This document shows, piece by piece, positions 8,280-28,901 of a stretch of 45,154 bases of DNA. The notes under the pieces were generated by a model. The model was not told where the DNA came from. It did no database searches and was given only the letters and a program-made list of their open reading frames with translations. Each line of letters starts with the position of its first letter. Within the stretch, counting starts at the first letter, position 1. This DNA is from Candidatus Vogelbacteria bacterium. GTDB lineage: Bacteria; Patescibacteriota; Minisyncoccia; Phycocordibacterales; UBA12445. The stretch spans positions 1-45,154 of the forward strand of contig JACQCV010000022.1 in NCBI GenBank assembly GCA_016201465.1. The letters run 5' to 3'. A program made the translations under genes and the position numbers.

Positions 8280-8308
8280 TCATAAGAGTATGTCGCCTAA
8301 TTAAATTA

Positions 8309-9250
8309 ATGAAAAATTTACTCTATACAATTGTTTTTTGTCTTGTTGTGGTTATGACGACTCTAGCGCATAAGGACGCGCTAGCAGAAGATCTAGGTTC
8401 TGCGAATTTTATAGTTCGTAATCCAACCATAAGTGCTGGGGGTGGACTTGCAACCTCTACTTCATTTGAGACTAGTGATGTTATCGGTCAAATTATTACA
8501 GGAACCAGTACATCTGCTAATTTCGAAGGGGAAACTGGTTTTGGTTATGTTCACGATACAGTGTTTTCAATAACTGCTCCCGCTGCGGTCAACTATGGAT
8601 CAAATGGTGTCTCTATCGGTTCACAAGTCCTAAATGCTGGACTAAATCCAATCAATGTAACCGACATAAGGGGCATCAGTTCTCCGTGGTCGTTAACAAT
8701 GGCTGTTACAAATTTGACTACTAGGGGCGGTGTTTTAAAAGTTGCCGGTGATAACAGTACGTTGTCGTCTACAGGTACCTATACTGGTGTTGTTGCTCCA
8801 GATAGATCAGATAAGTATGTTGTAGAAATACAAACGGGTGGAACGGTGGGCACAGCTACTTTCAAGTGGACTGATCCTGTTGGTACTGTTACTCAAAATG
8901 TTATGACTGCGGCTAGTGTTTTGTTGAGTAATGGTTTGAGCATAAATTTTGCTGATGCAATATATATAAGTGGGGATAAGTGGGTTCTCCCAGTCGACAG
9001 TATTGCTTATGGTAATCTACAGATGTTGCCAGCCGGCCCGACCGTTAATTATGGTGACTCCAATGTCGTTTCGGGATCTGATGGAACCTTTTCTGGTTCC
9101 AGTGCTACCTCGAATTCGAGAACTATCATCAGTTCCGATCCCGGGGGTAGTCAGGGTAGCTATACACAAAATGTTGAACTAAGACAGACTGTTCACGCGA
9201 ATACTTTACGAGGAACTTTTAATGGTACGATTGTACTTACTCTTTCATGA
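8309..9250 (+). CDS. Secreted WxL-domain-like surface protein
   Basis: Signal peptide MKNLLYTIVFCLVVVMTTLAHKDALA, starting at the ATG at 8309 (M19 of the track ORF). VTDIRGISSPWSLTMAVTNLT resembles the first WxL motif (D-x-RG-x3-W-x-L). It is a paralogue of 10117..10977. Confidence 0.5.
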   Translation: MKNLLYTIVFCLVVVMTTLAHKDALAEDLGSANFIVRNPTISAGGGLATSTSFETSDVIGQIITGTSTSANFEGETGFGYVHDTVFSITAPAAVNYGSNGVSIGSQVLNAGLNPINVTDIRGISSPWSLTMAVTNLTTRGGVLKVAGDNSTLSSTGTYTGVVAPDRSDKYVVEIQTGGTVGTATFKWTDPVGTVTQNVMTAASVLLSNGLSINFADAIYISGDKWVLPVDSIAYGNLQMLPAGPTVNYGDSNVVSGSDGTFSGSSATSNSRTIISSDPGGSQGSYTQNVELRQTVHANTLRGTFNGTIVLTLS

Positions 9251-9972
9251 GGTTTCGTCATTCTTTCTTTTTTTTAATTTTATTTCTTATCTCTCTTTTT
9301 CCAAATTATATTTTGGCACAAGGTGAGTTTTCCATAAGGCCTTACCCACCCCAGGAGACCTCTTGGTTGGTATATAAAAATGTCGGTCCCGGTAGTGTTA
9401 TCTCTGGTTCTGTAGAGATTCTTAATTTATCTGATACGATTCATAAAAAAGTTGTTGATTTTGTCATTAATGTGCCCAAAAATGTTACTCCAAAAGAATA
9501 TCTTGGATCAATACTTGCTAAAACAATAAATGATAATAGTGTTGAGAATGGTGGTTCTGGAGAAAACATTGTTGTGCGTATGGGTCTTAGGCTATATCTA
9601 ACAGTTGCCCAAAACGGAAATGTGTTATTGCAATCTTCGTCTGTCCCCAGCATGAATGTGGCGGATGATAGGACTGTAGTAGGCCCTATTAAAAAACCAA
9701 ATGTTACGTTAAGTAGTAAACCTGTTCATCATAAGGTAGCTGAATTAGAAAAGGTGAACAATTATAGAAGTGAGGTATCTTTTAACTACAAAACTTTAGC
9801 TACCACGACAGAAGATTTTTTAACAGTACGTGAACCCAGAGATTCTTATGGGATAGCAACAGTTTTTAATTTTGCGGCCAATTATAAAATTAACGGGAGT
9901 TTGTCTAACTTGTTGTTACTGTTGGGTATACTTACAGCCCTTCTCCTCTTTTTGGTTTTGGTATTAATCTAG
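9247..9972 (+). CDS. DUF916-like cell-surface protein (signal peptide plus C-terminal TM anchor)
   Basis: N-terminal signal FFFLILFLISLFPNYILA. FSIRPYPPQETSWLVYKNVGPGSVISGSVEILNLSD fits the 'yF-l-v-pG...v-v-N' pattern. C-terminal TM LLLLLGILTALLLFLVLVLI. It overlaps the upstream stop by 4 nt. Confidence 0.45.
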   Translation: MRFRHSFFFLILFLISLFPNYILAQGEFSIRPYPPQETSWLVYKNVGPGSVISGSVEILNLSDTIHKKVVDFVINVPKNVTPKEYLGSILAKTINDNSVENGGSGENIVVRMGLRLYLTVAQNGNVLLQSSSVPSMNVADDRTVVGPIKKPNVTLSSKPVHHKVAELEKVNNYRSEVSFNYKTLATTTEDFLTVREPRDSYGIATVFNFAANYKINGSLSNLLLLLGILTALLLFLVLVLI

Positions 9973-10116
9973 GTTATCAACATATCTATTCACGCCCCTC
10001 ATTTTTTACATGATATAATTCTACCAGATAGTCAACTTGGGAATTTGTTGGCACGGTCGATATCATAAAATATAATTCCCAATAAAAATTCAAAATAAAT
10101 TTTATATCATATCGAT

Positions 10117-10977
10117 ATGACAAAAAAACAATTATTAATGGAGGCAGTTGCTGGTACTTCAATCATAGCGACCACAATTTTGCCTTTCGTGGCCTTTGCT
10201 TCCAGTAACGTTACTGAAAGCTTGACGTTCACAGGGGGAAGCTTGTCCTTGTCTGCTCCTTCTACGGTCACTCTTGACGGTCTAAATGTTAGTACCGGTA
10301 CTCAGACCACCCAAGGTACAGGAGCCTATACTGTTACCGATACGCTCGGTGACGCTGTTGGTTACAACGTTACCGCAGTGGGAACAGCTTTAACGCGTCT
10401 TAAAACCGGATTAATGGGCATAAATAGCGATGGAAACACCCATGTTCAGGCTGGGGATGTGGCTCTTAATGACAACATGACTGCCTATTCTTACAATTGT
10501 GCAGGCGTGGGCAACGTGGGCATTCCTGCTGGTACTAACGAAGGTGGAAGCAGGTTTAAGATCACATTTACAACTGGTGGGGCAAGGGGTACTGCCGCCT
10601 TCAGTATTTTAAGGCCAGATGGTACTACCGCTACTAATCAAGTTACCGCCGCAACTAATGCAATTGGAGCTGGATTAACACTAAAGTTTGCTGCTGTTGA
10701 TTTTACAAATGGTGCAACAATCGCCATCCCAGTAAGTTGTGCTGCGCAAGCTGTTCAGCAAACACAAACACCAGATACTCTTGCTGCCTCAAGCGGAGTG
10801 TTGACAGGTGTGTCTCTTGGTGATGGTGGTACTGCAGATTCTTCTAAAACATTCTTTTCTGCAGAGGCAGGTGCGGGCAATGGGCAATATACATTTAACA
10901 TTGCCCACTCTGCAAGCGTTAGGAAGAATACCCTGGCTGGAGAACACCGAGGAACATTTGTAGTAACCGCTGCATAA
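10117..10977 (+). CDS. Secreted WxL-like surface protein, paralogue of 8309..9250
   Basis: Has a signal peptide. Shared blocks include VTDTLGDAVGYNVTAVGTALT, FKITFTTGGARGTAAF (against VVEIQTGGTVGTATF) and the C-terminal NTLAGEHRGTFVVT (against NTLRGTFNGTIVLT). Confidence 0.5.
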   Translation: MTKKQLLMEAVAGTSIIATTILPFVAFASSNVTESLTFTGGSLSLSAPSTVTLDGLNVSTGTQTTQGTGAYTVTDTLGDAVGYNVTAVGTALTRLKTGLMGINSDGNTHVQAGDVALNDNMTAYSYNCAGVGNVGIPAGTNEGGSRFKITFTTGGARGTAAFSILRPDGTTATNQVTAATNAIGAGLTLKFAAVDFTNGATIAIPVSCAAQAVQQTQTPDTLAASSGVLTGVSLGDGGTADSSKTFFSAEAGAGNGQYTFNIAHSASVRKNTLAGEHRGTFVVTAA

Positions 10978-11004
10978 GATATAAAGAATTTAACGTATCA
11001 AAGC

Positions 11005-11040
11005 CTCCCCAATGTTATTTTTTTGGGGGGTTTTGCTTTT
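11005..11040 (+). terminator. Rho-independent terminator
   Basis: ccccaa at 11007-11012 pairs with ttgggg at 11023-11028, followed by a T-run. Confidence 0.6.
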
Positions 11041-11096
11041 ATAATAGTAAATGATAAAATTACGCAAAGATATTATTAAATTTTGTTAATCCTATA

Positions 11097-12095
11097 ATGA
11101 AAATATTCAGCTATTATAAGGCCTACCTCTTATTAATAATTTTAATGTTTACTACTATTAATATCGCTTTTGCAGCTAAATCTGGCGGCATAGGTATTGG
11201 GCCATACCAAAATGATGTTAATGATAAAAGGGCGTGGCTTGTCTATGATAATATTAAGCCTGGACAGGAAATTAAAGACAAGGTTGTCATTTCTAATGAT
11301 ATGGATGAGGCAGTAACATTACTGGTTTATCCCGTCGATGCACATATAATAGAAGATGGAGGGTATGCTCCTGATCAAGATGATGTTGCTCCCATTGATG
11401 TGGGTGCGTGGACTGAAGTTTTGCAGAAGGAAGTATCGTTGGCTCCCGGCGAAAAAAAGATTGTCAATTTTATTATAAAGGTTCCAAAGGTTGTTGGTGT
11501 TGGTGACCATGCTGGTACCATATTGATTAGAAGGATGGTTCCAACAAAAGTTCTAGATAAGGATCAAACAACTGGGGAAATGGTTGAAAATGGTATGTCA
11601 GTTATTACAAGGGTGGGGACTAGGATATATCTGAATGTGGCTGGTAAAAAGTTGCCCAGCCTCTCTTTTGATAGACTAGCTTTTGAGAAAAATGCAAAAG
11701 GAGAACCTTCTTTCTATTTTTCTATTTCAAATAATGGCAACATAAGACTTGATCCAAGTGCAAATGTGGAAATCTATAGTGCCGATGGGCTGAAATTAAT
11801 GCAAACTTTTGATGTAAATTTGAAAGAGGTTTTACCTGGCGATAAAACTAAGATAGAGATTAAATGGGAAAAACCTTTGGACGGTGCATTTATTGTTAAG
11901 GCCAAGATTTCTGATCCTAATGATGCTGCCAAGTTCCTTAACCAGGAGACAAAATTTGAGTGGAAGGTTTCCGGTATCAATGGTGCTGAGGTTATTGCTG
12001 GCGTACCAATAACGAATTTAGTAATACTCGGTGGTATAATTGTTTTATTACTTTTTATGGTTGTAATTAAACTCTTGGTCAGAAGGATTTATTGA
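11097..12095 (+). CDS. DUF916/DUF3324-like cell-surface protein (signal peptide plus C-terminal TM anchor)
   Basis: Motifs WLVYDNIKPGQEIKDKVVISNDMDEAVTLLVYPVDAH, WTEVLQKEVSLAPGEKKIVNFIIKVPKVVGVGDHAGTILI and GTRIYLNV. C-terminal TM plus basic tail LVILGGIIVLLLFMVVIKLLVRRIY. Confidence 0.55.
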   Translation: MKIFSYYKAYLLLIILMFTTINIAFAAKSGGIGIGPYQNDVNDKRAWLVYDNIKPGQEIKDKVVISNDMDEAVTLLVYPVDAHIIEDGGYAPDQDDVAPIDVGAWTEVLQKEVSLAPGEKKIVNFIIKVPKVVGVGDHAGTILIRRMVPTKVLDKDQTTGEMVENGMSVITRVGTRIYLNVAGKKLPSLSFDRLAFEKNAKGEPSFYFSISNNGNIRLDPSANVEIYSADGLKLMQTFDVNLKEVLPGDKTKIEIKWEKPLDGAFIVKAKISDPNDAAKFLNQETKFEWKVSGINGAEVIAGVPITNLVILGGIIVLLLFMVVIKLLVRRIY

Positions 12096-12295: not shown

Positions 12296-15200
12296 ATGAC
12301 CCCGTATTATTTGAACAGAAAAGAGGGCGGCAGAATTGTAACTCTTTTTTCTCGGCTACTGATCTTGGTCGGTATTTTTCTCTTACCCATAGATATTATT
12401 TTTGCTTCGTCTGGTGTCCCTAAAATCTTGTCCCATCAAGGTAGGCTGCTTGATTCCAGTGCAAACCTTCTCGGAGGCAGCGGTACAAACTATTGTTTTC
12501 GTTTTTCCATATATGACGCCGTTTCCAATGGTAATAAATTGTGGCCAGGTGGTACTCCATCTAATATGACTGTTCTGGTAAAGAATGGTATTTATAATGT
12601 TGATATTGGTGATACAAATGTGGGTGGCGATTCCTTGAGCCTGGATTTCAATGATGATTCTTATTATTTGAATATTGCGATAGCTAACTCATCGAACGGA
12701 TCTTGTGCGGGCGTGACATCGTTCGAGACACTTTCTCCGCGTAAGCATATTACGTCTTCGGGCTATGCAATAAATTCCGGATTGTTAAATGGTCAAGCGG
12801 CAAGTTACTATCTAGACGCGAATAATTTAAATAACTTTGGTCAGTTATTCAATAGCCTGCTTAGTGGAACAACTACACTTCCAAATCTTGTTTCTTTGCC
12901 TAATCTAACTTCTATCGGTACTCTTTCCTCTCTGGCGGTGTCTGGTACCATTACTCTTGGTGGTCACCCTTTGACTTTCCCATCCGGCAGCGGTTCAAAT
13001 GGTGATATGTTAACTACAAACGGTAATGGAAGTCTCTCGTGGACATCATTATTGAATGTATCACATGGAGGAACTGGTTTGGCTTCTTACTCTACAGGTG
13101 ACATACTATATGCGTCAGATGATTCTACTTTGGCTGCGCTTCACAAAGGAGGCGAGGGTTCTGTTCTTAAAATTTTAGGTGGTGTCCCTGTCTGGGGTGT
13201 TGATCTTACTTCTGGTGAAGGTGGCGGATCAAGTTCCTGGGCTACCACAACAGATAATTTGTCCATAATTGAAAATGACCCAACACAGGTCGTTGTAGTT
13301 GGATCAACCGCGACCTCTTCTACTGGCTATATTTTTGAGGTGTCTGGTGCGGGCATAAATGGCAAACGAGCCCTCATTCCTTATGCCTCTACTACTATGG
13401 TTACGGCAACAACGGCTTCTACCACCGAATTAATAGTTAGTAAAATACTCACATTACCAAACAACTCAATCTCTGATTCCGCCCTATCTTCTAATGTAGC
13501 TTTACTTAATGGAGGACAAACATTTACAACTCTCACTGGCTCAGGCGCTTTAACGATAACAGGTCTTTCGTCACTAAACGGAGGAGCCTCAACAACGAAC
13601 ATCTCCGCCTCTGGGACAATGTGGACAGGTGGATTATCAACAACGACTGGTGGTGTTATTAACACTCAAACTAAGTACCAGATTGCAGGGGTTGATATCT
13701 TAACTTCTAATACCCTAGGTTCGGGTATTGTAACTTCATCTTTAACCACAGTGGGCGCTCTCACTTCTGGTTCGATTGCTTCTAGTTTCGGATCAATCAA
13801 TATCGGTTCAAATGCTATTACGGCGGGGGCAGGAACTTTCACGTCTGTTACAGATAGCGGCTTAACTTCTGGAAGGATTCCATTTGCTACGGCGGGGGGC
13901 CAACTTACCGACAACTCGAGGTTGGCATGGAATAATTCGACCAATGTTCTTACTGTCAATGGAGTTCTTGCAATATCCGGAATGACTACTGGCTCTATTC
14001 CTTTCGCTACGGCAGGTGGTGCAATTGGACAGAACAATTCAAACTTTTTCTGGGATAATACAAATTCTCGTTTGGGTCTCGGAACAACATCTCCCTCACA
14101 AAGACTTTCTGTGGCCGGGAATGCACTTTTGTCTGGAGACTTAACTCTAGCTAATCTTACTGCCACCGGCACGATTACTGCCCCAAATTTTTCTGGAGCA
14201 TTGACGGGAAATGTTTCTGGCTCCGCTGCTACTGTAACTGGGGCCTCACAGTTTGCTATTACTACTTTGGCAAACTTATCAACGGTTGGTACTCTTACTT
14301 CAGGTTCGATTGGTTCGGGTTTTGGGCCTATCAATATCGGTTCATCAAGCCCTCTAACTGCTGGTATTGGGACATTTTCATCTGTTACTGTTAATGGCAC
14401 TCTTGCTGGCAACAGTTTGTCTATGCCTACTACCGAAAATATTGCCGGGGTAATTTCGACTGGATCCAACCAGTCACTGTCGTCACTGAATGGTGCTATA
14501 TATTGGGGGAAAAACAAATTGTCTTCAGATATATTCGATGAAACCAACTATAATTTTGGTGAAATATGGCAGAGTAGTAACTCTAATAGAGATTGGCAGG
14601 CAATGGCCCTGTCATCTAATGGTCAATATCAGACGGCTGTAGTAAATGGAGGACAAATTTATACTTCGTCAAACTCTGGTTCAACGTGGACAGCAAGGGA
14701 CTCCAATAGAATTTGGACATCGGTCACTGTATCTGCAAGTGGTCAATATCAAACCGCGGTCGCTATTACTGACCAAATTTATACATCATCAGATTATGGT
14801 GTCACCTGGACGGCTAGGGATTCTGATAGAAATTGGCAGGCTGTGGCCATGTCTTCGGATGGGTCAAGACAGACGGCGGTTGAATCTGGCGGACAAATTT
14901 ACGTATCTACAAATTATGGAGCCACCTGGACGGCTAATTTTAGCGCTCCTACAGTGGCTAACTGGCAGGCTGTGGCCATGTCAGCAAATGGTTTTTACCA
15001 GACTGCATTGGTAAGTAATGGGCAAATCTACACTTCCTTTAACTACGGAGTCACGTGGACGGCAAGGGACTCAGGTAGAAATTGGTCTTCTGTTGCAATG
15101 TCCTCAACCGGACAATATCAGACAGCCGCTGTCTTCGGGGGGTCAATTTATATGTCGACAAACTATGGGATAAATTGGTATGCAAATACTACAGCACCTT

Positions 15201-18200
15201 CAAGTGGTAATTGGGTGTCTGTGGCTGTGTCTGGTAACGGTTCTAATCAGTGGGCACTTCAAAGTGGAGGAGTACCATATGTGACCATTGATAGAAGTCA
15301 TTGGACAAAGCCATTTTTAAGTGAACCGAATAGAAATTGGATTGCAGTGGCTATATCTCCGGATATTACTGGTTCAAAAGTAAGTGCGGCGGTAAATGGT
15401 GGTCAGGTTTTTCTATCCTCATGGGTGGGTACGATGTATTCTCCACCAACTTCCAACGATCCTGGTCGTTACTGGACATCGGTAGCAATGTCTGCTGATG
15501 GTTCTAGACAAATAGCAGTCGAATTTGGTGGCAATGTGTATACTTCTTCTGATTTTGCAAATTCGTGGATATCTAGAGGAAATTATAACGCATGGAAAGC
15601 CGTAGCAATGTCTGCTGATGGTTCGAGACAAATGGCGGTAACTAATAATGGCGGTGGTACTGGATACATATATACCTCTTTGGATTATGGTGTGAACTGG
15701 ACACAAAGAAATTCAAATAGAAACTGGGCATCCTCTGTTGCTATATCAGCAGACGGATCAAGACAGACGGCGGCCGTATTTGGAGGTCAAATTTATACAT
15801 CATCAGATTATGGTGTCACCTGGACGGCTAGGGATTCTGATAGAAATTGGCAGGCTGTGGCCATGTCTTCGGATGGGTCAAGACAGACGGCGGTTGAATC
15901 TGGCGGACAAATCTATACATCTTCAGATTACGGCGTGACGTGGACAGCGAGAGATTCTAGTCGTTCGTGGAACACAGTCGCAATGTCTTCGGATGGATCA
16001 AGGCAAACGGCCCTAGCAAATAGCGGACAAATCTATACATCTTCAGATTACGGCGTGACGTGGACAGCGAGGGGTCTCTCTGGTCCTTGGCAATTTGTAG
16101 CAATGTCTGCGGACGGCTTGAGACAGGCGGCAATACAAAATAATGGCAATACAAGTATTGGTGCGCTATATATTTCCAAGGATTATGGCACAACCTGGTC
16201 ACTAAGTGATTCAACTCACAAATGGAGTTTTGTCGCGATATCTGCTGATGGTTCGAGAATGACGGCTGGCGAGTTTAATAATGGACGCCTATATACCTCT
16301 CTTGCCGAAAAGAAGGTATTTACTGGCAGTATCATTAGAACTAGTACCATGACCAGCGCGTCTAGTGTACAAATTCAAGATAGCGGCGGTCATACTTTAC
16401 TACAGGCCACCGGAGATGGTAGAACACAATTTGTAGTAAAGCCAGGGGTTCCTGATGCATTTCAGCTGTTAACAAACTTCCAGAATAAGGTGATTCCAGT
16501 CTTTACAATTGGTACCACCGTTTCAGGCTCGACTATTAAGGGTAGAGCTGTGAGTAACCTCAGTGGTATGTCATTTGGAAATGATGCAATTGGTTACGAT
16601 GACTATTTGGACGGTGTACACGCCTCTACGACTGTTGGTGGTATAAATTATACTGCGTCATCAGGTGGTATTGCTGGTAATAATATTCATGTTGCAATTG
16701 TTGAGCCAGGTAGTGATGGTCAGTTGTCTGTTGGCAGGGACGGTTTAAACGTTACTGTCATTTTAGCAAAAGATAGTGGTGCTGTATCATCTACAATTGC
16801 TGATGTGGTAAGCGCCGTTAATGGAGACGATTCGGCAAGTGCAGTTATGTCTGCTATCGCAACCGGAGACGATTCAGTTATAGCTTCTGCTATCGCAACC
16901 TCAACTCTTTCTGGAGGAGAGACTGATGCCACTTTCAGCGGATTTTTGACTGTTGCCAAGACCAGCACTTTCACCGGCCTTGCCTCGTTTGTTGGAGGCG
17001 CCTCAACTACTAACTTGACAGTGGCATCAAATTCTACCTTAACTGGTAATGTTGGGGTTGGTGGAGATTTACACGTGGGATCTGTAAGAAATAATAGTTT
17101 TGAAACTGGCACGTTTTCTGGCTGGTCTGTTCTTTCTGGAAATGCATTTAGCCACCCAGTTGCGGGAACTTGTGCTAATCAAAATGCAGTTAGTGGTTAT
17201 GATGGTAAATATCTAATTAACTCTTATTGCGATGTTGATGGGAATGGTAACGATACGCTCACTGGAGTCATAAGATCCGACACCTTCGTTTTAACAGGTC
17301 CGAAGGTTAAATATCTTATTGGGGGAGGTAATGATATTACAAATTTAAAAGTTGAAATAGTTCGAGCGTCGGATGATGAGGTTATAAATGCCGATACTCA
17401 TACAGAAGGAGGTAGTGAACATTTAGATTCACATACCATTGATCTTTCCCCGTATGTAAATAATAGGGTTTATATAAAAATAACAGATAATGATCAGGGT
17501 GGTTGGGGCCACATCTTATTCGATGATTTTAGGCAGTTGGACAGTAATAATAATGTCATAGATAATGTTGGTCCAGTGTTTTCTGTTGGCAACCTCGGGC
17601 TCTATCTTGACAGTAGTAATAATTTTTCTATCGGTACAAGCACATTGTTTGCCTCTTCTAACGGCAATCTGGGTATAGGCACGACTACTCCTTCTAACAA
17701 ACTTGTTATGTCTGGAGGTAATTTCTTACAGGTGGCGAGTGGTAATCTGACCAGAAAGGGTTTTATAAGTTACGGTGCTGGTAATAGTGTTTACGTCAGC
17801 GGAAAATATGCATACATTGCTAATGGGGGAGATGATAGAGTTGTAGATATTTCAGATCCGACAAATCCGGTTGAGGTTACATCAGTGGGAGCTGGTGGTA
17901 ATGCTGCGGGGGTCTTTGTCGCCGGGAAGTATATGTATGTTGCTAACGGCGGTGGAGGTAATGGTGGTCTTGTTGTTTACGACGTCTCTGACTTATCAGT
18001 TGCACCAATACCTAAGATTAGTAATTTGCTTGATTTTGCTCAAAATGCAGAAAATGTTTTTGTGGCTGGTAAATATGCGTACGTAGCTTCGGGCCCAGGG
18101 CTTTCCATTATGGATGTCTCTGACCCATACAATTTAAAAGAGGTTTCTGGTACTGGTTTTGACTGTGGAGCCGCATCTCGCAAAGGTGTTTATGTTGACG

Positions 18201-19903
18201 GTAAGTTTGCTTATTTGACATCCGATGGGAATAATGATAGTTGCCCTGGAGGTAATAATAATGCTGGGCCCAAGTATTTGAAGTTTAATGTTTCTGATCC
18301 TCTACATCCACAACAGGTTGGTAATGCCAATCTTCCTGCTGCTGCCTTTGGGCTATATGCAAGTGGTAAGTATGTTTATGTTGCTGACGGAACCGCTGGT
18401 TTGCAGATTGTAAATGCTCTCGACGATAGTATTGTTGGTAGTTATGACACAAATGGAACATCCTACAACGTAAAAGTGGCAGGGAATTACGCTTATGTGG
18501 CGGACGGCTCAAATGGTCTTGTTGTTCTCGATGTATCTAATCCTGTCTCACCAGTTTTGGTTGGTACTTACACTTCTTCTGGTACGGTATATGACGTGTC
18601 TATAAGCGGTAAGTATGCGTACATTACTGGTACAGCAGGTCTTGAGACAATTGATATAAATGGTATAGATGTGCCGGCAATAAATACCGGGTCGCTATTT
18701 GCAAACAATTTGGGCATAGCTAATGATCTCGATGTTGCCAATAATCTGAATATCCATAATAGCTTGAACATTGGAATCGGAGGACTATATTCGACTGGAC
18801 CGTTTGCAATATCTGGTAATGCCACTTCAACTTTAATTGGAGCTTTGGCTGGTGCTTCGGGTGATCTTACTATTGCACGAGGCGGTGTGGGTAATTTAAT
18901 TCTCAACCCCTATGGTGGTAACGTTGGTATTGGTACTAACTCTCCAACACAACCTCTTGCTATGGCCTCCGGTGCTTATGTTACGGCTGGTGGCACATGG
19001 ACCAACGCCTCTAGTCGCGACTTGAAGGAGAACTTTACAACCCTAGACCCAGAAGCCGTACTGGAACAAATAAATCAATTAGCTATCCCGCGTTGGAACT
19101 ACAAAAACGAAGCAACAACAACTACGCACATAGGTCCGATAGCTCAAGATTTTTATTCAATATTCGGTCTAGGTGGTACCACTACTGGTTCGATATCTAT
19201 TTCGACAATAGATCCCGCTGGCGTTGCTCTTCTGGGGATTCAGGGTTTGTCCAAAAGGTTAAATGAGTTGGCAGTGAGTATCGGATCTACAACAGCCACT
19301 CTTTCGTCAGAAAAACTTGTTTATAGTAAACTGGAGGTTGATAGTGCGTCTATTAAATCAGCTGAAATATCTAATCTTAAGATATTGAACTCACTAATCA
19401 TGGAAGATCGGGTGACGGGTGATAGGTACTGTGTTTATATTGAGAACGGAGAGTGGGCAAAGTCTAGGGGTGATTGTGATATTAATGATAATAAAAATTC
19501 CAACAATATATCATCAATAATCTCAACCTCAGTCGAGACTGCTCCTTCTTTTGTCTCAGCTAGCACCGCATTTTCCACATCAACAGATAGAGAAGCTCCA
19601 GTTTTAACATTACTTGGTGATGCAACGTCTACTCTCAAGGTTGGTGATAATTTTGTTGATCCTGGGTCTGTGGTTACGGATAACGTGGATCAAAATCTGG
19701 GAGTAAAAGTTACTGGTTTGGTTGACACAAGTAAGGCCGGGATTTATACGCTCTATTATGATGCGATTGACAATGCGGGTAATAACGCCACACAGTTAAG
19801 TAGGGTAGTGACCATTGTGGATTCAACTCATTCGGATCTGTCCGGAATATTGTTACCTAATCCTAACGCCACTAGCTCCGTTGGTAGTGTTCTGGCGTGG
19901 TAA
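12296..19903 (+). CDS. Giant (2535 aa) multidomain surface protein: N-terminal anchor, tail-fibre-like Gly/Thr/Ser repeats, 14 BNR/Asp-box blades, lectin-like module, LVIVD repeats, peptidase-S74 intramolecular chaperone module, DUF5011-like Ig domain
   Basis: A single uninterrupted 7.6-kb ORF. Its domain signatures are listed as separate features below. Confidence 0.9.
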   Translation: MTPYYLNRKEGGRIVTLFSRLLILVGIFLLPIDIIFASSGVPKILSHQGRLLDSSANLLGGSGTNYCFRFSIYDAVSNGNKLWPGGTPSNMTVLVKNGIYNVDIGDTNVGGDSLSLDFNDDSYYLNIAIANSSNGSCAGVTSFETLSPRKHITSSGYAINSGLLNGQAASYYLDANNLNNFGQLFNSLLSGTTTLPNLVSLPNLTSIGTLSSLAVSGTITLGGHPLTFPSGSGSNGDMLTTNGNGSLSWTSLLNVSHGGTGLASYSTGDILYASDDSTLAALHKGGEGSVLKILGGVPVWGVDLTSGEGGGSSSWATTTDNLSIIENDPTQVVVVGSTATSSTGYIFEVSGAGINGKRALIPYASTTMVTATTASTTELIVSKILTLPNNSISDSALSSNVALLNGGQTFTTLTGSGALTITGLSSLNGGASTTNISASGTMWTGGLSTTTGGVINTQTKYQIAGVDILTSNTLGSGIVTSSLTTVGALTSGSIASSFGSINIGSNAITAGAGTFTSVTDSGLTSGRIPFATAGGQLTDNSRLAWNNSTNVLTVNGVLAISGMTTGSIPFATAGGAIGQNNSNFFWDNTNSRLGLGTTSPSQRLSVAGNALLSGDLTLANLTATGTITAPNFSGALTGNVSGSAATVTGASQFAITTLANLSTVGTLTSGSIGSGFGPINIGSSSPLTAGIGTFSSVTVNGTLAGNSLSMPTTENIAGVISTGSNQSLSSLNGAIYWGKNKLSSDIFDETNYNFGEIWQSSNSNRDWQAMALSSNGQYQTAVVNGGQIYTSSNSGSTWTARDSNRIWTSVTVSASGQYQTAVAITDQIYTSSDYGVTWTARDSDRNWQAVAMSSDGSRQTAVESGGQIYVSTNYGATWTANFSAPTVANWQAVAMSANGFYQTALVSNGQIYTSFNYGVTWTARDSGRNWSSVAMSSTGQYQTAAVFGGSIYMSTNYGINWYANTTAPSSGNWVSVAVSGNGSNQWALQSGGVPYVTIDRSHWTKPFLSEPNRNWIAVAISPDITGSKVSAAVNGGQVFLSSWVGTMYSPPTSNDPGRYWTSVAMSADGSRQIAVEFGGNVYTSSDFANSWISRGNYNAWKAVAMSADGSRQMAVTNNGGGTGYIYTSLDYGVNWTQRNSNRNWASSVAISADGSRQTAAVFGGQIYTSSDYGVTWTARDSDRNWQAVAMSSDGSRQTAVESGGQIYTSSDYGVTWTARDSSRSWNTVAMSSDGSRQTALANSGQIYTSSDYGVTWTARGLSGPWQFVAMSADGLRQAAIQNNGNTSIGALYISKDYGTTWSLSDSTHKWSFVAISADGSRMTAGEFNNGRLYTSLAEKKVFTGSIIRTSTMTSASSVQIQDSGGHTLLQATGDGRTQFVVKPGVPDAFQLLTNFQNKVIPVFTIGTTVSGSTIKGRAVSNLSGMSFGNDAIGYDDYLDGVHASTTVGGINYTASSGGIAGNNIHVAIVEPGSDGQLSVGRDGLNVTVILAKDSGAVSSTIADVVSAVNGDDSASAVMSAIATGDDSVIASAIATSTLSGGETDATFSGFLTVAKTSTFTGLASFVGGASTTNLTVASNSTLTGNVGVGGDLHVGSVRNNSFETGTFSGWSVLSGNAFSHPVAGTCANQNAVSGYDGKYLINSYCDVDGNGNDTLTGVIRSDTFVLTGPKVKYLIGGGNDITNLKVEIVRASDDEVINADTHTEGGSEHLDSHTIDLSPYVNNRVYIKITDNDQGGWGHILFDDFRQLDSNNNVIDNVGPVFSVGNLGLYLDSSNNFSIGTSTLFASSNGNLGIGTTTPSNKLVMSGGNFLQVASGNLTRKGFISYGAGNSVYVSGKYAYIANGGDDRVVDISDPTNPVEVTSVGAGGNAAGVFVAGKYMYVANGGGGNGGLVVYDVSDLSVAPIPKISNLLDFAQNAENVFVAGKYAYVASGPGLSIMDVSDPYNLKEVSGTGFDCGAASRKGVYVDGKFAYLTSDGNNDSCPGGNNNAGPKYLKFNVSDPLHPQQVGNANLPAAAFGLYASGKYVYVADGTAGLQIVNALDDSIVGSYDTNGTSYNVKVAGNYAYVADGSNGLVVLDVSNPVSPVLVGTYTSSGTVYDVSISGKYAYITGTAGLETIDINGIDVPAINTGSLFANNLGIANDLDVANNLNIHNSLNIGIGGLYSTGPFAISGNATSTLIGALAGASGDLTIARGGVGNLILNPYGGNVGIGTNSPTQPLAMASGAYVTAGGTWTNASSRDLKENFTTLDPEAVLEQINQLAIPRWNYKNEATTTTHIGPIAQDFYSIFGLGGTTTGSISISTIDPAGVALLGIQGLSKRLNELAVSIGSTTATLSSEKLVYSKLEVDSASIKSAEISNLKILNSLIMEDRVTGDRYCVYIENGEWAKSRGDCDINDNKNSNNISSIISTSVETAPSFVSASTAFSTSTDREAPVLTLLGDATSTLKVGDNFVDPGSVVTDNVDQNLGVKVTGLVDTSKAGIYTLYYDAIDNAGNNATQLSRVVTIVDSTHSDLSGILLPNPNATSSVGSVLAW
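14774..14898 (+). repeat. 125-bp exact intragenic direct repeat, copy 1 (partner at 15788..15912)
   Basis: caaatttatacatcatcagattatggtgtcacctggacgg...ggcggacaaat reads identically at both sites by eye. Confidence 0.85.
15788..15912 (+). repeat. 125-bp exact intragenic direct repeat, copy 2
   Basis: See copy 1. Both copies encode QIYTSSDYGVTWTARDSDRNWQAVAMSSDGSRQTAVESGGQI. Confidence 0.85.
15903..15951 (+). repeat. 49-bp exact intragenic repeat, copy 1 (partner at 16023..16071)
   Basis: gcggacaaatctatacatcttcagattacggcgtgacgtggacagcgag occurs at both sites. Confidence 0.85.
16023..16071 (+). repeat. 49-bp exact intragenic repeat, copy 2
   Basis: See copy 1. Confidence 0.85.
17770..18670 (+). 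other. Domain: LVIVD-type beta-propeller repeats
   Basis: Recurrent G-KYAYVA-G..GL-V-DVS-P units. An example is AGNYAYVADGSNGLVVLDVSNPVSPVLVG. Confidence 0.7.
19010..19290 (+). other. Domain: peptidase S74 / tail-spike intramolecular chaperone (auto-cleaving) module
   Basis: SSRDLKENFTTLDPEAVLEQINQLAIPRWNYKNEATTTTHIGPIAQDFYSIFGL...IDPAGVALLGIQGLSKRLNEL matches the S-DR-LKENI ... hiG-iAQe ... coiled-coil pattern of endosialidase/tail-fibre chaperone domains. Confidence 0.8.
19588..19825 (+). other. Domain: DUF5011-like bacterial Ig module at the extreme C-terminus
   Basis: REAPVLTLLGDATSTLKVGDNFVDPGSVVTDNVDQNLGVKVTGLVDTSKAGIYTLYYDAIDNAGNNATQLSRVVTI. Confidence 0.6.
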
Positions 19904-20105: not shown

Positions 20106-20543
20106 ATGTGGTTTAGAGTTATCAGTGCGGTTGTTGCGGTCGTGGTAGCTGCGGTCATGTGTGATACTCTTTCGGGCAGTGAGGACGTAGATAAGAATGA
20201 TGCAGATAAAGACAAAAATAGTTTTACGCCGGCCGAGCGGGAGGTTCGGCATGTAGAGCTAAATAAGTCGTTTGACATTTCTGTGGGACAGGAGGTTTTG
20301 CTTCCTGATGGTGAGTCGCGCGCGTATCTTTCTTTCATTGACACAAGCAACGCGCTGGAATTCTCATTTAACCTTGACGGTGTAGCTCATTCCTTCGAGT
20401 TTTGTGGTCCGAAAGATAGAATGAAAGAAGTCGGCGGATACATGATCATACTCCTCAACGCCGCACCTGACTCAAGGGTCGAGCGGGAAGAGATTTACGG
20501 CAAGGGCCATTATTTGGCCAAGATTGTGATTTCGGTCGCGTAA
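20106..20543 (+). CDS. Small membrane-anchored hypothetical protein (GC-rich, SD-led)
   Basis: SD AAGGAGG 7 nt upstream. N-terminal TM VISAVVAVVVAAVM. Likely paralogue of the next gene. Confidence 0.6.
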   Translation: MWFRVISAVVAVVVAAVMCDTLSGSEDVDKNDADKDKNSFTPAEREVRHVELNKSFDISVGQEVLLPDGESRAYLSFIDTSNALEFSFNLDGVAHSFEFCGPKDRMKEVGGYMIILLNAAPDSRVEREEIYGKGHYLAKIVISVA

Positions 20544-20554
20544 GGAGAAGACCA

Positions 20555-21073
20555 ATGGACGAGCAAAAAATTCCAAAGCAGGTTCGGTGGGTAGGTGCGA
20601 TTGTCGCAATTACTGTTGCGGTGATGAGATACCTCTACACTCCAAAGAAGAAGACCAAGAAGAACATAAAGGAAGAGAAGGAAAAGAATAGCTCCTCTGG
20701 TTATAAAGATGTCAATCTTTCTGGTCAGTTTGATCTTAGGTGTGGTGAGACCGCCTATATCGATGCCGAAGGCTTGAAGATCTTATTTTCCAAGGTAATC
20801 TTAGAGCAAAATGAGGCACCATCCGGTTCTCGTCGAAGGGATCCGCCGGCAATAGTTGTTCTCGAGATGACTGAGCAGGTTGGTATTGCAACCGAATCTT
20901 GTACTCTCGAATTGTCGACATCGAATTATCAGGGTCGGCCAAGGGTTGTGTTGACCGAGGACCAATTGATCGGACAGTATGATGTCAGACTAAATGGTCT
21001 TGAATTTCCCAAGACGCCAGGCATTAATGAATACGTTGCTAATCTGGTGATCTTTAAAGTTAAGCAATCGTAA
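20555..21073 (+). CDS. Small membrane-anchored hypothetical protein (GC-rich, SD-led)
   Basis: SD AAGGAGA upstream. N-terminal TM WVGAIVAITVAVM followed by a Lys-rich linker. It shares a V-x-L-x3-FD-[IL]-x2-G-[QE] block with 20106..20543. Confidence 0.6.
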   Translation: MDEQKIPKQVRWVGAIVAITVAVMRYLYTPKKKTKKNIKEEKEKNSSSGYKDVNLSGQFDLRCGETAYIDAEGLKILFSKVILEQNEAPSGSRRRDPPAIVVLEMTEQVGIATESCTLELSTSNYQGRPRVVLTEDQLIGQYDVRLNGLEFPKTPGINEYVANLVIFKVKQS

Positions 21074-21143: not shown

Positions 21144-21665
21144 ATGTTATATACAAAGAAAGGGGATGATGGATCTACGATCTTGTTTGATGCCAACAAG
21201 AGAATTTCAAAAACTTCACTTATCGTGGAGGTTTTGGGCGCTGTTGATGAACTGAATTCGCTCTTGGGTGTTTGTAAGGTGAAGGCTGATGATACAGAGA
21301 TAAAGAAATCTTTAGGGGAGCTTCAGCAAGATCTTTTTATCGCCCAAGCCGAGCTTGCTGGTGCCGAACCGAGAATTAAATTAGATAAGATCACAAGATT
21401 AGAGGGGGATATTAACAATATTGAGAAGCAATTGCCGGTCATCAAGAGTTTTTTTGTTGCTGGTGGTACGGAGTTGTCGGCGCTTCTAGATTTTGCTAGA
21501 GCTGTATCGAGAAGGGTAGAGAGGGTGGCGGTGAGACTATATGATGACGGCGCTATGAATAAAGATTTGTATTCGTATTTGAATAGGATCTCATCATATC
21601 TATATGCGCTAGCTAGACTTACTAACCAGAAATCTGGTATAAAGGAGGTCAGACCGCATTATTGA
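21144..21665 (+). CDS. ATP:cob(I)alamin adenosyltransferase, PduO type
   Basis: MLYTKKGDDGSTILFDANKRISKTSLIVEVLGAVDELNSLLG is the canonical PduO/MMAB N-terminus. I prefer the ATG at 21144 (M8 of the track ORF). Confidence 0.85.
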   Translation: MLYTKKGDDGSTILFDANKRISKTSLIVEVLGAVDELNSLLGVCKVKADDTEIKKSLGELQQDLFIAQAELAGAEPRIKLDKITRLEGDINNIEKQLPVIKSFFVAGGTELSALLDFARAVSRRVERVAVRLYDDGAMNKDLYSYLNRISSYLYALARLTNQKSGIKEVRPHY

Positions 21666-21706
21666 TTTTGTGGTCTAGAATTTGTTAAGCCTTTAACAAA
21701 TTAGAT

Positions 21707-21778
21707 GGTGGCTATGGTGTAGCGGTAGCACACGAGCTTGTGGAGCTCTTAGTCTGGGTTCAACTCCCAGTAGCCACC
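21707..21778 (+). tRNA. tRNA-His (anticodon GUG) with encoded G-1; CCA not encoded
   Basis: Folded by hand. G-1 (21707) pairs with C73 (21778). Acceptor GTGGCTA/TAGCCAC and D stem GTGT/GCAC. Anticodon loop TTGTGGA has GTG at 21740-21742. T arm is CTGGG-TTCAACT-CCCAG. Confidence 0.85.
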
Positions 21779-22108
21779 CCTTGAAAGACTACTAGCTAGT
21801 TCTAGTAGCAAGTTGTAAGGGGAACGTAAGGTAAACTCTAAGTTTTTTCCATTTACTGTTGGGTTCTGAAGTATGTAATTCAAGAATTGCCTCTTTTCAC
21901 TTGGTTCAGAACTCTCAAATATAGACTTAGCTCTACGAGCGATATAAAACACTGTAGCTACCGTGGTTTGATAATCATGGTCAGCTTTTGTGTGTTCTTC
22001 TAGTTCTATGTTCAAGAGCTGTATCTTGTCGTGGTAGTCCTGGTGCCTTTTGTCATACATGTCCTTAGTAATACGCCATAAGAAAGTTATTTTTCTAAAT
22101 AAAAGCCT
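21749..22108 (-). pseudogene. C-terminal remnant of a large serine recombinase, abutting or overlapping the 3' end of tRNA-His
   Basis: ITKDMYDKRHQDYHDKIQLLNIELEEHTKADHDYQ...ARRAKSIFESSEPSEKRQFLNYILQNPTVNGKNLEFTLRSPYNLL matches the coiled-coil/C-terminal tail pattern of recombinase-family proteins. No catalytic N-terminal domain is present. The first 25 codons of the track ORF are just antisense translation of the 260-bp repeat. Confidence 0.5.
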
Positions 22109-22109
22109 T

Positions 22110-22369
22110 AAAATAAGCCTTTTCTCACCAACCCATTGACAAAACATATAATAGTATGCTATACTTTCGCTAGATAAAAACAATAAAAAGCTAGCTCTTC
22201 ACATCAAATAAAAGTTCAAAAACCTTGATGCGCATCCCAACGTGGAGGCATCATATACCTCGATTAAATTCGAGGGGAAGGAGCTGTCATCATGACGGTA
22301 CATGAGACTGTCGCCGACGGCAAACTTGGGAACGAGGAGCTTGGTCAATTCACCCGCAAGGTGGACGAA
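22110..22369 (+). repeat. 260-bp direct repeat, left copy: promoter, ~125-nt leader and the first 26 codons of the 204-aa ORF
   Basis: Near-identical to 43808..44068. Differences are about 10 substitutions or indels, clustered just after the -10. Confidence 0.9.
22136..22165 (+). promoter_or_regulatory. Consensus promoter TTGACA, 18 nt spacer, TATACT
   Basis: TTGACA at 22136-22141 and TATACT at 22160-22165. Downstream leader hairpins are tgatgc...gcatca and cctcga-ttaaat-tcgagg, just before the SD GGAAGGAG. Confidence 0.6.
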
Positions 22370-22906
22370 ATCAAGCGACGCCTCAACGAAGGAACGATTA
22401 CCCTCTCTTGGGCACTGAATGAGCTTCAGCGCATCATCGAGGGTCGTCAGTCCGTGAGCGACCTGGTCATCGACTTCGACGCCACGCCCATGATTCCGTC
22501 GGGCTTGGAAATCCGAGAGTCCGACCAAATCGCATCCCGCTTCAAGGGCAAGTGGACCTTCAATGCGAAGGCACTCGCTCTCTACCTCTCCAAGAAGCAG
22601 AAACAGGGCAAGCTCATCAAGGGCCATGACCTCAAGGACGACCTCGACGGCGAGAAGGTCATGGGAGCACAGCTTCTCGACTTCTACCTGAAGAACCCGC
22701 ACCTCATCCCCGACGAATGGAAGGGGAAGGCCACGTTCTTCTGGGGAACCATCTACCGCGGCTCGTTCGGGGACCTCTGCGTCCGCTACCTGTACTGGAG
22801 TGGCAAGGCGTGGGACTCGGACTACAACTGGCTGGACAACAACTTCAACGATACGAACCCCGCGTTGCTCGCTAATCTCTTCATTTCTCCTCTGGCTTTT
22901 TGCTAG
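22292..22906 (+). CDS. Candidate DGR variable (target) protein; GC-rich 204-aa ORF with an Asn/Asp/Tyr/Trp-rich C-terminus
   Basis: Line 22401-22460 is 36/60 G+C. The C-terminus is FFWGTIYRGSFGDLCVRYLYWSGKAWDSDYNWLDNNFNDTNPALL. Position is next to avd and RT. The last ~12 codons (from ~22872) are AT-rich and are antisense to the avd 3' end. Confidence 0.5.
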   Translation: MTVHETVADGKLGNEELGQFTRKVDEIKRRLNEGTITLSWALNELQRIIEGRQSVSDLVIDFDATPMIPSGLEIRESDQIASRFKGKWTFNAKALALYLSKKQKQGKLIKGHDLKDDLDGEKVMGAQLLDFYLKNPHLIPDEWKGKATFFWGTIYRGSFGDLCVRYLYWSGKAWDSDYNWLDNNFNDTNPALLANLFISPLAFC

Positions 22907-23317
22907 GGGAGTTTTGTTTACTCTGGGCTATGTCGAGAGGCTTAACTTTAACCTCCTCAACCTTTCTTGTAACCTGCCCATTCCACCCTCCAAGCATCTT
23001 TCCTATCTCATTGAGTGGCATGGAAACAGCAATATATTTATTGTTATCTAAAGACTTTGTTTCCCAGAGGACCATGAGTAATATCTTTAATGTATCTGTC
23101 TTCCTAATAGCTATTCTAATCCAAGGTTGTTTCTCCTCTTTAGATAAGAAGCTGGCAATCGCTATAGATTCGATAATTTCTATGAATAAGGCATCAATTC
23201 TTTGTCCCAGAGAATGTCTATGGTCCTTAGGTAATACCTGGTAGTATCCATACCATAAGATATATACACTCTTAACCCTTTGTAGCAGGGGTAGAATCGG
23301 GGGGGGGGTAACTTCAT
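22881..23317 (-). CDS. avd: DGR accessory variability determinant (Avd, four-helix-bundle family), interrupted by a frameshift in a C10 tract
   Basis: Hand translation of the minus strand gives ATG(23317) AAG TTA C10. The long frame after the tract reads ILPLLQRVKSVYILWYGYYQVLPKDHRHSLGQRIDALFIEIIESIAIASFLSKEEKQPWIRIAIRKTDTLKILLMVLWETKSLDNNKYIAVSMPLNEIGKMLGGWNGQVTRK. This is Avd-like, including the EIGxxLGGW signature. The span is 437 nt, which is not a multiple of 3. C11 or C8 would restore a 145-aa ORF. Confidence 0.7.
23299..23308. repeat. G10/C10 homopolymer inside the avd 5' end, 22 nt upstream of the RT start codon
   Basis: cgg gggggggg ta, counted directly. It is the longest G/C run I saw in this AT-rich window. 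Confidence 0.95.
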
Positions 23318-23329
23318 GGTTTTATTTAT

Positions 23330-24343: not shown

Positions 24344-24355
24344 TAGAATGACGGT

Positions 24356-24865
24356 ATGAAAAACCCAGAAAAATTTACCCCCTACATTAAAGAAGAAGCC
24401 AAGAAAATAATTGAAGAGGTTAAGGAAACATTAGCTAAGGACTTCGGTCTCACGGAATTTACCCAAGTTGAGTTTTTTGAACTTCAACACGCACTACAAG
24501 AAGTTATGGAAGTTTATCCTGTGAAGATAAAACCTGTAACAGCCCAAGAAAAGATAGAGTATGTCCACTCAAAAAGTGTTTTTGGTTCTACCAAACTTGA
24601 AGTCATTGACCGCTGGCTTAGCAGAACTCATCACGTGAGAATAATAGATGTTCCTGTCCGTTATGTATTAACCGACCAGAAGACAGATGAACAATTTATG
24701 TTTAATGGTAAAGACTGTTCTTCAGGAAACAATACCTTGAAACAAGCCTGGCAGAAAAAATTTGAACTTCAAAAACTTGGTCATAGTGGAGTCATTTCTG
24801 GAGGTATTACAGAAGAGTTTAAGGAGATGCTTAGAGAGGACTCCAAGAAAAGGGAGATTATTTAA
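24356..24865 (+). CDS. Hypothetical protein, 12 nt downstream of the RT stop
   Basis: 169-aa ORF. I recognise no family. Confidence 0.5.
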   Translation: MKNPEKFTPYIKEEAKKIIEEVKETLAKDFGLTEFTQVEFFELQHALQEVMEVYPVKIKPVTAQEKIEYVHSKSVFGSTKLEVIDRWLSRTHHVRIIDVPVRYVLTDQKTDEQFMFNGKDCSSGNNTLKQAWQKKFELQKLGHSGVISGGITEEFKEMLREDSKKREII

Positions 24866-24940
24866 TTGACTTCTTGATTTTCTAATGTTAGTTTAGCATC
24901 CAGAACTCTCGTTTTTTGATAGACCAAAGGAGGTCTGAGG

Positions 24941-25498: not shown

Positions 25499-25515
25499 GA
25501 CAAGGAGGAAGCACA

Positions 25516-28811: not shown

Positions 28812-28901
28812 CACGGCACCCTAGTAGGAATTTTGCTCAATATGTCAATCATGATAACAATTTTAATCATTTTAGCAACCCAATATTAGAAAAAGTATAC
28901 A

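Follow-up and report, generated by a model that had tools for sequence, protein, structure and literature searches.

A giant S74-containing protein of a Candidatus Vogelbacteria bacterium as a candidate mosaic surface fibre

The DNA analysed here, referred to as the window, is a stretch of 45,154 nucleotides (nt) from a Candidatus Vogelbacteria bacterium of the phylum Patescibacteriota (contig JACQCV010000022.1 of assembly GCA_016201465.1). A single long open reading frame (ORF), located at positions 12296-19903 of the forward strand and open under translation table 11, encodes a protein of 2,535 amino acids (aa). We propose, with a probability of roughly 60%, that this giant protein is a secreted homotrimeric surface fibre, built like a phage tail fibre, and the Patescibacteria counterpart of the mosaic adhesive trimers (MATs) of Bdellovibrio. 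The proposal is made because the protein has a match to the Peptidase_S74 (S74) family, an invariant catalytic dyad with a proven spacing, an alignment to the MAT protein Bd3182, three capping loops and a MAT-like placement of its leader domain. It is made also because the protein carries binding-type modules, has relatives with swapped cargo, is encoded among housekeeping genes and belongs to a phylum in which S74 was found in 67 of 301 sampled genomes. The domain content, the intact catalytic motif, the family membership and the cellular context were observed directly. An initial annotation, made from the sequence alone, had described the protein as a chimera of several surface and phage-type elements. 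That list was essentially right; the Pfam families, the motifs and the blade counts were all found again.

A Pfam scan of the protein identified four families above their own cut-offs: LVIVD, BNR, PF16403 and Peptidase_S74. The S74 match (PF13884) spans residues 2239-2290, with an expect value (E) of 1.6e-10 and 41.6 bits against a cut-off of 22. Hence, the S74 assignment passes a profile search. In a six-frame scan of the genome, S74 was found again at nt 19010-19165 with 48.5 bits; this was the single S74 match in the assembly (0.76 Mb, 44 contigs). The catalytic motif reads S2239-S-R2241-D-L-K2244, with Ser and Lys at spacing i/i+5. Neither residue of the dyad is substituted. In an alignment of the C-terminal region with 15 relatives, Ser2239, Arg2241, Lys2244, a WNY block, an HIGP block, C2379 and C2394 are invariant. 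We predict from the sequence that Ser2239 is the nucleophile and Lys2244 the base. Endosialidase and MYRF (S578/K583) have experimentally proven dyads of the same spacing, in which an Arg stabilises the oxyanion and cleavage depends on a correctly formed trimer (PMC3742443). The SDxxxK motif of MATs is spaced likewise (PMC10769870). The predicted cut, between Ala2238 and Ser2239, would free a 297-aa piece carrying an immunoglobulin (Ig)-like domain. Motifs that the initial annotation had singled out were located as described: SSRDLKENF at residue 2239, HIGPIAQDF at 2278 and, in the jelly-roll module discussed below, GWGHILFDDF at 1736.

The region ahead of the cut was compared with known structures. 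When the profile of the C-terminal alignment was searched against the PDB, one entry was returned. This was 8OJN, a 'cell wall surface anchor family protein' that corresponds to Bd3182 (E 0.009). The alignment covers 'GINTAAPAYNIHVTGTAGLSTGSAWTVAS' and extends right to where the self-cleaved chain ends ('...GSAWTVAS'). Residues ~2116-2238 are expected to form a triple beta-helix at the tip of the mature fibre. A single-sequence PDB search with the C-terminus returned Ig-like domains only. An AlphaFold2 (AF2) monomer model of residues 2150-2535, made from a 15-row alignment, was poor, with a predicted local distance difference test score (pLDDT) of 44.7; it contains a helix at 2307-2328, behind the S74 Pfam match.

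Motif scans also located capping loops. One motif, LGLGTTSPSQRL, is at residue 593 within the shaft. Another, LGIGTTTPSNKL, is at residue 1792, ahead of the LVIVD propeller. The third (NVGIGTNSPTQPL / VGIGTNSPTQPL) is at residue 2210 and lies 29 residues ahead of Ser2239. All three match the list in Supplementary Fig. 18 of PMC10769870, which includes NVGIGTTTTTEKLN, NVGIGATSPSAKLQ and the MYRF loop RVGINTDRPDEALV.

The N-terminus of the protein had been read as an anchor. In a hydropathy scan, residues 14-38 are hydrophobic (core 14-36), follow a basic n-region and end in an AxA-like site, IFA|SS, which abuts the start of a conserved leader domain. In relatives, the leader domain likewise starts right behind AHA|AS, VLA|IS, AEA|A and ANA|A sites. 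Because this position behind an AxA-type site is conserved across the family, residues 1-38 are probably a cleavable Sec signal peptide instead of an anchor. The leader domain itself is ~125 aa in length and has no matching Pfam model. Nine aligned family members have the pattern '..S.QG.L ... NG.F.V.IG ... LSPR..I', and the family-wide consensus is '..YQG.L ... NG.F.V..G ... L.PR'. Scanning genome contigs for the pattern confirmed 205 loci, and the best 80 of the 205 were almost all from Patescibacteria, as measured with a 3-row alignment biased towards that phylum. We propose that the leader domain is the cell-proximal docking end of the protein. The shaft that follows (residues ~166-760) had no Pfam match. 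It has an internal 178-aa duplication, and a direct repeat is present in the DNA (13742-13810 versus 14276-14344, 78% identical).

Beyond the shaft are two sets of propeller blades. The first matches BNR_6 (Pfam E 7e-18). Counting again by motif and period, we obtained the 14 Asp-box blades given by the initial annotation, each of ~40-45 aa, within residues ~767-1345. The blades start near residues 767, 807, 847, 890, 930, 973, 1015, 1060, 1100, 1145, 1185, 1225, 1265 and 1310, and are enough for two seven-bladed propellers. The same region matches the NCBIfam model F510_1955 glycosylhydrolase (E 5e-19), with a score of 68.6 bits that is below the cut-off of 175. In the DNA, repeat families with a 120-nt period extend across the Asp-box region. 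Exact repeats join blades that are not adjacent; one is 125 bp (14774-14898 = 15788-15912) and another 49 bp (15903-15951 = 16023-16071). The remaining blades are only 60-75% identical. Such exact repeats between blades are a sign either of recent duplication or conversion of blades or of a collapsed assembly, and blade number may vary within the population. The second set is formed by LVIVD repeats, also expected from the initial annotation. The Pfam match has an E value of 2.9e-39 and covers six stretches. A motif scan identified seven GK[YF]xYxA blades at residues 1836-2111, equivalent to one seven-bladed LVIVD propeller.

Between the two sets is a module that had been guessed to be a jelly-roll. 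No Pfam model matches residues 1595-1765, and a PDB profile search gave no significant match. We used this segment as the query in a word-indexed search and obtained 46 proteins. Nearly all were multi-modular fructanases of glycoside hydrolase (GH) family GH32, from Paenibacillus, Microbacterium and similar genera, in which the jelly-roll-type module occurs repeated. Eleven of the GH32 modules could be aligned with residues 1595-1765 at 33-43% identity and with 23 invariant columns. The AF2 model built from this alignment is an all-beta sandwich (pLDDT 73; predicted template modelling score 0.74). Its Foldseek neighbours are the gingipain cleaved-adhesin, MAM, CBM35 and CBM61 domains, with template modelling scores of 0.4-0.5 and E values down to 7e-5. 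Hence, the guess was backed by identity to the GH32 modules, by the model and by its structural neighbours. We regard the module as a beta-sandwich of binding type whose family has no member of solved structure. Judged from its relatives and its modelled fold, it probably binds carbohydrate. The accessory modules of the GH32 fructanases, which are annotated merely as 'GH32 C-terminal domain-containing protein', have landmark residues in common with it (FE.G...GW, GGG and GGWGH..D). They differ in that the giant has a single copy, in a fibre that includes no GH32 catalytic domain, and in that the WGWG loop conserved in the GH32 modules is missing from this copy. A further guess, that the module is the CBM66 of levanase, is not supported by sequence, as the PDB profile search found nothing significant.

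The S74 domain of the giant is not at the extreme C-terminus, unlike in phages and MATs. The initial annotation counted ~250 further residues behind it. The Pfam model spans just the first ~52 residues of the chaperone domain, and the distance from Ser to the end of the protein is 297 aa in the giant versus 97-133 aa in short-tailed relatives. On both grounds, we estimate that the true surplus behind the chaperone domain is ~170 aa. It consists of a two-cysteine hairpin, a Ser/Thr-rich linker, an Ig-like domain and a 28-aa tail. No Pfam model matches the hairpin (residues ~2366-2396), and nothing else in the C-terminal AF2 model is predicted with confidence (pLDDT of the hairpin ~77-84). At the position of the linker, relatives too have S/T/P-rich tails. 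The Ig-like domain, which had been called DUF5011-like, was recovered as Bact_surface_Ig-like (PF16403, DUF5011-type) at residues 2437-2507 with a Pfam E value of 6.6e-15. Its sequence matches in the PDB are 2kpn (E 2.6e-6) and BT_2262 (E 4e-5). Residues 2508-2535 contain neither a membrane helix nor an LPXTG-type sorting signal, as assessed by sequence and hydropathy.

Tails were then surveyed in 12 loci from the phylum sample, besides that of the window, which were picked by S74 score and not by tail. Of these, 11 were readable. Three had short tails and eight extended 174 to >500 aa past Ser. Hence, an internal S74 domain is the norm, not the exception, among these Patescibacteria loci. The arrangement also has a known precedent in MYRF (PMC3742443). 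Across the tails that were read, several classes recur: a Cys hairpin plus S/T/P-rich tail, a '...FDWWIV' beta-sandwich, Ig-like domains and an FGE/C-type-lectin-like end. Individual relatives show further arrangements. In two (P0036 and P0041), S74 is followed by a ~250-aa cysteine-rich domain ending 'GFRCAK'. By eye, this end resembles the FGE-sulfatase/C-type-lectin fold, which is usual in targets of diversity-generating retroelements and is one MAT tip class. Another (P0004) has two S74-like modules in tandem, then a beta-sandwich and two Ig-like domains. In P0048, a type IX secretion C-terminal sorting domain (PF18962) is directly behind S74.

The giant had been presented as a singular chimera. 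It is instead one member of a large Patescibacteria family. A search with residues 2150-2535 returned 63 proteins of 1,400-4,245 aa, ~50 of them with S74, and the few named sources are Minisyncoccia, Roizmanbacteria and Parcubacteria. A search with residues 2180-2535 yielded mostly multi-copy Ig-like (PF16403) proteins and was uninformative on S74 architectures. Relatives show hardly any variation in the junction 'G-G-x-W-T-N-A-S-[SD]-R-[DN]-L-K-E-N-F'. Conversely, their cargo varies and includes BNR, LVIVD, LamG, GH43, GDSL esterase/lipase, Kelch and F5/8C domains, as well as inteins. Such cargo swapping on a common S74 chassis is the mosaic pattern of adhesin families. The sampled genomes with S74 were drawn from a set of 0.5-2.1 Mb each, and the domain is mostly in frames of ~800-8,840 aa. 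In several giant S74 fibre genes (P0040, P0045, P0057, P0063 and locus L004), the coding sequence is interrupted by intein-type (Hint) domains (PF14890 or PF07591). A full-text search found no paper that describes the family for Patescibacteria or links the phylum to MATs, which is not proof that none exists.

We next consider the setting of the gene. Upstream, on the same strand, are genes for triosephosphate isomerase, phosphoglycerate kinase, pseudouridine synthase and a membrane protein with a peptidoglycan-binding domain. Downstream are two small ORFs for putative membrane proteins and a gene for cobalamin adenosyltransferase. The GC fraction is 0.41-0.45 in and around the giant gene, so that its composition is like that of its surroundings. 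No PHROG family matches any of ten proteins, namely the giant and its nine neighbours; the flanks thus contain no phage structural genes by this measure, nor does the gene form part of a prophage module. Housekeeping genes likewise surround three relatives: L33, ParB, RelA and TopA in one case, RpiB, Rpe, Fba and L25 in another, and Obg and GatB in the third. When the S74 region was compared with 50,697 phage records using tblastn, four weak matches were obtained, with 30-32% identity. Because the flanks are cellular, the PHROG search is empty, relatives adjoin housekeeping genes and phage matches are weak, we conclude that the giant is a cellular gene. The initial annotation was therefore right to see phage receptor-binding architecture in a cellular gene. 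Such use is not new, however; the architecture has already been characterised in the MAT fibres of Bdellovibrio (PMC10769870).

We infer trimer formation, cleavage, retention at the surface via the leader domain and binding of glycans or other ligands as follows. The Sec signal peptide (residues 1-38) would be removed. The ~125-aa leader domain would then remain next to the cell and dock the fibre on a surface component. At the opposite end, the S74 chaperone domain (residues 2239-~2345) would bring three chains into register, starting from the C-terminus. In a correct trimer, Ser2239, activated by Lys2244, would cut between Ala2238 and Ser2239. The mature fibre would have ~2,200 aa per chain, with globular ligand-binding modules arranged along the Gly/Thr/Ser shaft. 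These would be two Asp-box propellers, the GH32-type carbohydrate-binding-like jelly-roll and the LVIVD propeller. The cut would expose a beta-helical tip at the end of the mature fibre. The 297-aa C-terminal piece, made up of the chaperone, the Cys hairpin, the S/T linker and the Ig-like domain, would be released as a separate trimer. The job of the fibre is likely to be the binding of surface glycans of a host, a partner cell or a substrate. The initial annotation's picture of a trimeric fibre tipped by propellers is thus plausible as a prediction.

Several points weigh against this proposal. Both trimerisation and cleavage are predicted, and the monomer AF2 model of residues 2150-2535 is poor. 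The PDB search linked the giant to Bd3182 only marginally. With 23 residues, the hydrophobic stretch at the N-terminus is long and could be an uncleaved anchor. The leader domain is likened to the MAT N-domain by its position and size. In Bdellovibrio, deletions of MATs gave little phenotype, and the function of the model system is only partly established (PMC10769870). Moreover, S74 ends the protein in MATs and phages, whereas here and in most relatives folded modules come after it; if those modules were adhesive tips, discarding them would be odd.

The last of these points leads to the main rival explanation. The S74 domain could act only as a trimerisation clamp, or could cleave yet stay bound, with the Cys hairpin, linker and Ig-like domain forming the working tip of the fibre. 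The long tails in eight of the 11 readable loci, and the conserved classes into which tails fall (Cys hairpin, '...FDWWIV' beta-sandwich, Ig-like domain and, in P0036 and P0041, an FGE/C-type-lectin-like end), are consistent with such a role. Beta-sandwich and C-type-lectin folds are, in addition, tip domains of non-S74 MATs, with an 'FGE' tip in Table S3 (PMC10769870). Conversely, none of the 15 aligned relatives deviates at the catalytic Ser, Lys or Arg, which is unexpected if cleavage is dispensable. Every S74 domain so far tested (endosialidase, T5 pb1, MYRF and Bd3182) cleaves (PMC3742443, PMC10769870), and the low-complexity S/T/P linkers resemble spacers more than a rigid tip. We consider a retained tip doubtful. 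A different role for the tail is that the S74 cut is a maturation switch yielding two working trimers, the long fibre and a dedicated C-terminal unit. The unit would comprise the chaperone, the conserved two-cysteine hairpin and a module that varies, being Ig-like in the giant and beta-sandwich or FGE/C-type-lectin-like in relatives. It could be a released soluble lectin-like factor, or a temporary tether to the envelope until the fibre is correctly assembled, equivalent to MYRF logic outside the cell. We put this forward tentatively, as one of the less likely outcomes. If it were true, the conserved classes of post-S74 extension would give the fibres a second level of specificity, one that has gone unrecognised so far.

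Two further explanations concern what the protein does and where it comes from. The giant might be mainly an extracellular polysaccharide-degrading enzyme, akin to an endosialidase-style depolymerase fibre, in which one or both Asp-box propellers are catalytic and the jelly-roll binds substrate. Phage endosialidase has the same plan of propeller, stalk and S74 (PMC3742443), some relatives have true enzyme domains (GH43, GDSL esterase), and the relatives of the jelly-roll are accessory modules of GH32 fructanases. The match of the BNR region to F510_1955 points the same way, but its score is far under the cut-off and stems from the Asp-box repeats. Blades of 40-45 aa have the short, non-catalytic size of Ycf48-like proteins, and one relative is named 'photosystem II stability/assembly factor-like'. 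There was no GH-family Pfam match anywhere in the giant protein, and a PDB sequence search gave no glycosidase save one weak match of 151 aa. Thus, a catalytic role seems improbable. As for origin, tailspikes and fibres of phages are the best-known carriers of S74, one relative was named 'Phage tail fiber-like protein' by its depositors, and a tRNA-linked mobile region and a retroelement lie 2-9 kb downstream of the giant. These features might suggest a receptor-binding protein of a phage, prophage or tailocin in a bacterial contig. Against this stand the empty PHROG search, the weakness of the S74-region matches in phage records and the upstream same-strand genes, which function in glycolysis, RNA modification and the cell surface. 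The three relatives adjoin ribosomal, Obg, GatB, ParB and TopA genes, and virion proteins are not characterised by a Sec signal peptide. It is very unlikely that this copy came from a prophage.

The features of the gene are collected in Table 1.

Table 1. Features of the giant gene; positions are those of the window.
Feature	Positions	Strand	Residues	Basis
Signal peptide, putative	12296..12409	+	1-38	Hydropathy scan; site position in relatives
Family leader domain	12410..12790	+	~39-165	Alignment of 9 family members
Gly/Thr/Ser-rich shaft	12791..14575	+	~166-760	Direct repeat; motif scan
14 Asp-box (BNR) blades	14576..16330	+	~761-1345	Pfam BNR_6; blade starts
Beta-sandwich (jelly-roll) module	17078..17590	+	1595-1765	Relatives; AF2; Foldseek
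Seven LVIVD repeats	17771..18640	+	~1826-2115	Pfam LVIVD
Pre-cleavage stalk ending '...NVGIGTNSPTQPLAMASGAYVTAGGTWTNA'	18641..19009	+	~2116-2238	Profile match to Bd3182 tip
S74 chaperone / auto-processing domain	19010..19330	+	2239-~2345	PF13884
Two-cysteine beta-hairpin module	19391..19483	+	~2366-2396	C2379, C2394
Ser/Thr/Asn-rich low-complexity linker	19484..19603	+	~2397-2436	Sequence
Ig-like domain (PF16403 / DUF5011 type)	19604..19816	+	2437-2507	Pfam
Short C-terminal tail and stop codon	19817..19903	+	2508-2535	Sequence; hydropathy

Other genes in the window deserve mention. Positions 8255-12095, upstream of the giant and on the same strand, hold two consecutive paralogous pairs. In each, a gene for a secreted protein precedes one whose product has a signal peptide at its start and a membrane helix at its C-terminus. 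The secreted members have 331 and 286 aa (BLASTP 5e-15) and the anchored members 241 and 332 aa (7e-9). The last anchored protein (332 aa) matches a DUF916-type WxL-interacting peptidoglycan-binding domain, and the first secreted protein has a weak match to WxL (E 0.09). In its layout, the region is reminiscent of a Firmicute-style surface-complex locus. We considered this WxL-like/DUF916-like cassette as a conserved partner of the giants, but it is absent beside the three relatives, so that no conserved link is shown. The small ORFs directly downstream of the giant (20106-21073) encode proteins of 145 and 172 aa with hydrophobic N-terminal stretches, of which only the first passed the hydropathy threshold. 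Neither had a match in Pfam, NCBIfam or PHROGs. A gene for a 337-aa reverse transcriptase is located 3.4 kb downstream of the giant (23330-24343). Its best NCBIfam match is a group II intron reverse transcriptase/maturase (E 1e-46, below the cut-off). That it belongs to a diversity-generating element aimed at the giant was rejected; there is no template/variable repeat within 21600-25700, and the best match of the enzyme is of the group II intron type. Further on, three copies of a 97-183-nt repeat (86-92% identical) lie between small gene cassettes at 26555-26737, 27726-27908 and 28725-28821.

According to a preprint, cultivated Patescibacteria all live attached to other microbes; it describes the recognition and holding of hosts as largely unknown, with type IV pili the main candidates so far (bioRxiv 10.1101/2024.11.25.624915). 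For the recognition of hosts or substrates, a phylum-wide family of giant, mosaic, fibre-like proteins with swappable binding modules is an obvious candidate. The MAT principle, by which cells borrow the receptor-binding design of phages, would thereby reach a very large section of the bacterial tree that is poorly understood. Conserved modules behind a self-cleaving domain raise a testable question: what is the purpose of S74 cleavage outside phages? The gain from this single gene is modest because it is one more member of a family.

The closest characterised system is the S74 subgroup of the Bdellovibrio MAT fibres, for example Bd3182. Bdellovibrio bacteriovorus has 21 surface-displayed trimeric MAT fibres (Caulton et al. 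2024, PMC10769870). All 21 have a signal peptide, then a ~130-aa beta-rich domain that is conserved and a long shaft with capping loops, and in 13 of them the last domain is S74 with an SDxxxK motif (PMC10769870). Bd3182 cleaves at S782, and the S782A derivative does not (PMC10769870; PDB 8OJN). Lineages listed as bearing MATs are Oligoflexia, PVC, Micavibrio, FCB, Omnitrophica and others; Patescibacteria are absent from this list (PMC10769870). Like a MAT, the giant is encoded by a cellular gene, and directly behind its probable signal peptide it has a conserved leader domain comparable in place and size (~125-130 aa). Both have a long shaft with 'xVGIGTxxPxxxL' (V-G-x-G-x-x-P-x-x-x-L) capping loops, of which the giant has three, and an S74 domain with an S-x4-K motif preceded by '...G.AWT.A'. 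In both families binding modules are exchanged mosaically among members, and both lineages live by contact with other bacteria. Conversely, the giant belongs to another phylum and is ~2.5 times longer. It has 21 propeller blades and a jelly-roll embedded in the shaft, whereas a MAT has one tip domain, and ~170 residues (Cys hairpin, linker and Ig-like domain) continue past S74. Its size, the embedded propellers and the conserved modules behind the self-cleaving domain set the giant apart from known MAT and phage designs.

The phage proteins K1F endoNF and T5 pb1 (PDB 3GW6, 4UW8) share with the giant the Pfam family, the Ser/Lys dyad and a beta-helical stalk before the cut. Endosialidase likewise joins an Asp-box propeller, a stalk and a chaperone (PMC3742443). 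Unlike the giant, endoNF and pb1 are parts of virions, have no signal peptides and carry the chaperone domain at the extreme C-terminus; the likeness of the giant's S74 region to phage records is weak, as noted above. In MYRF, as in the giant, the S74/ICA domain is internal to a long cellular protein and further sequence follows it (PMC3742443, PMC8326128). Cleavage of MYRF parts two trimers with different fates (PMC3742443, PMC8326128), and a capping-loop motif is found upstream (PMC10769870). MYRF is, however, a eukaryotic membrane protein of the endoplasmic reticulum, and the part after its ICA domain has a transmembrane helix that the giant lacks. The N-terminal product of MYRF is a transcription factor; that of the giant is predicted to be a fibre.

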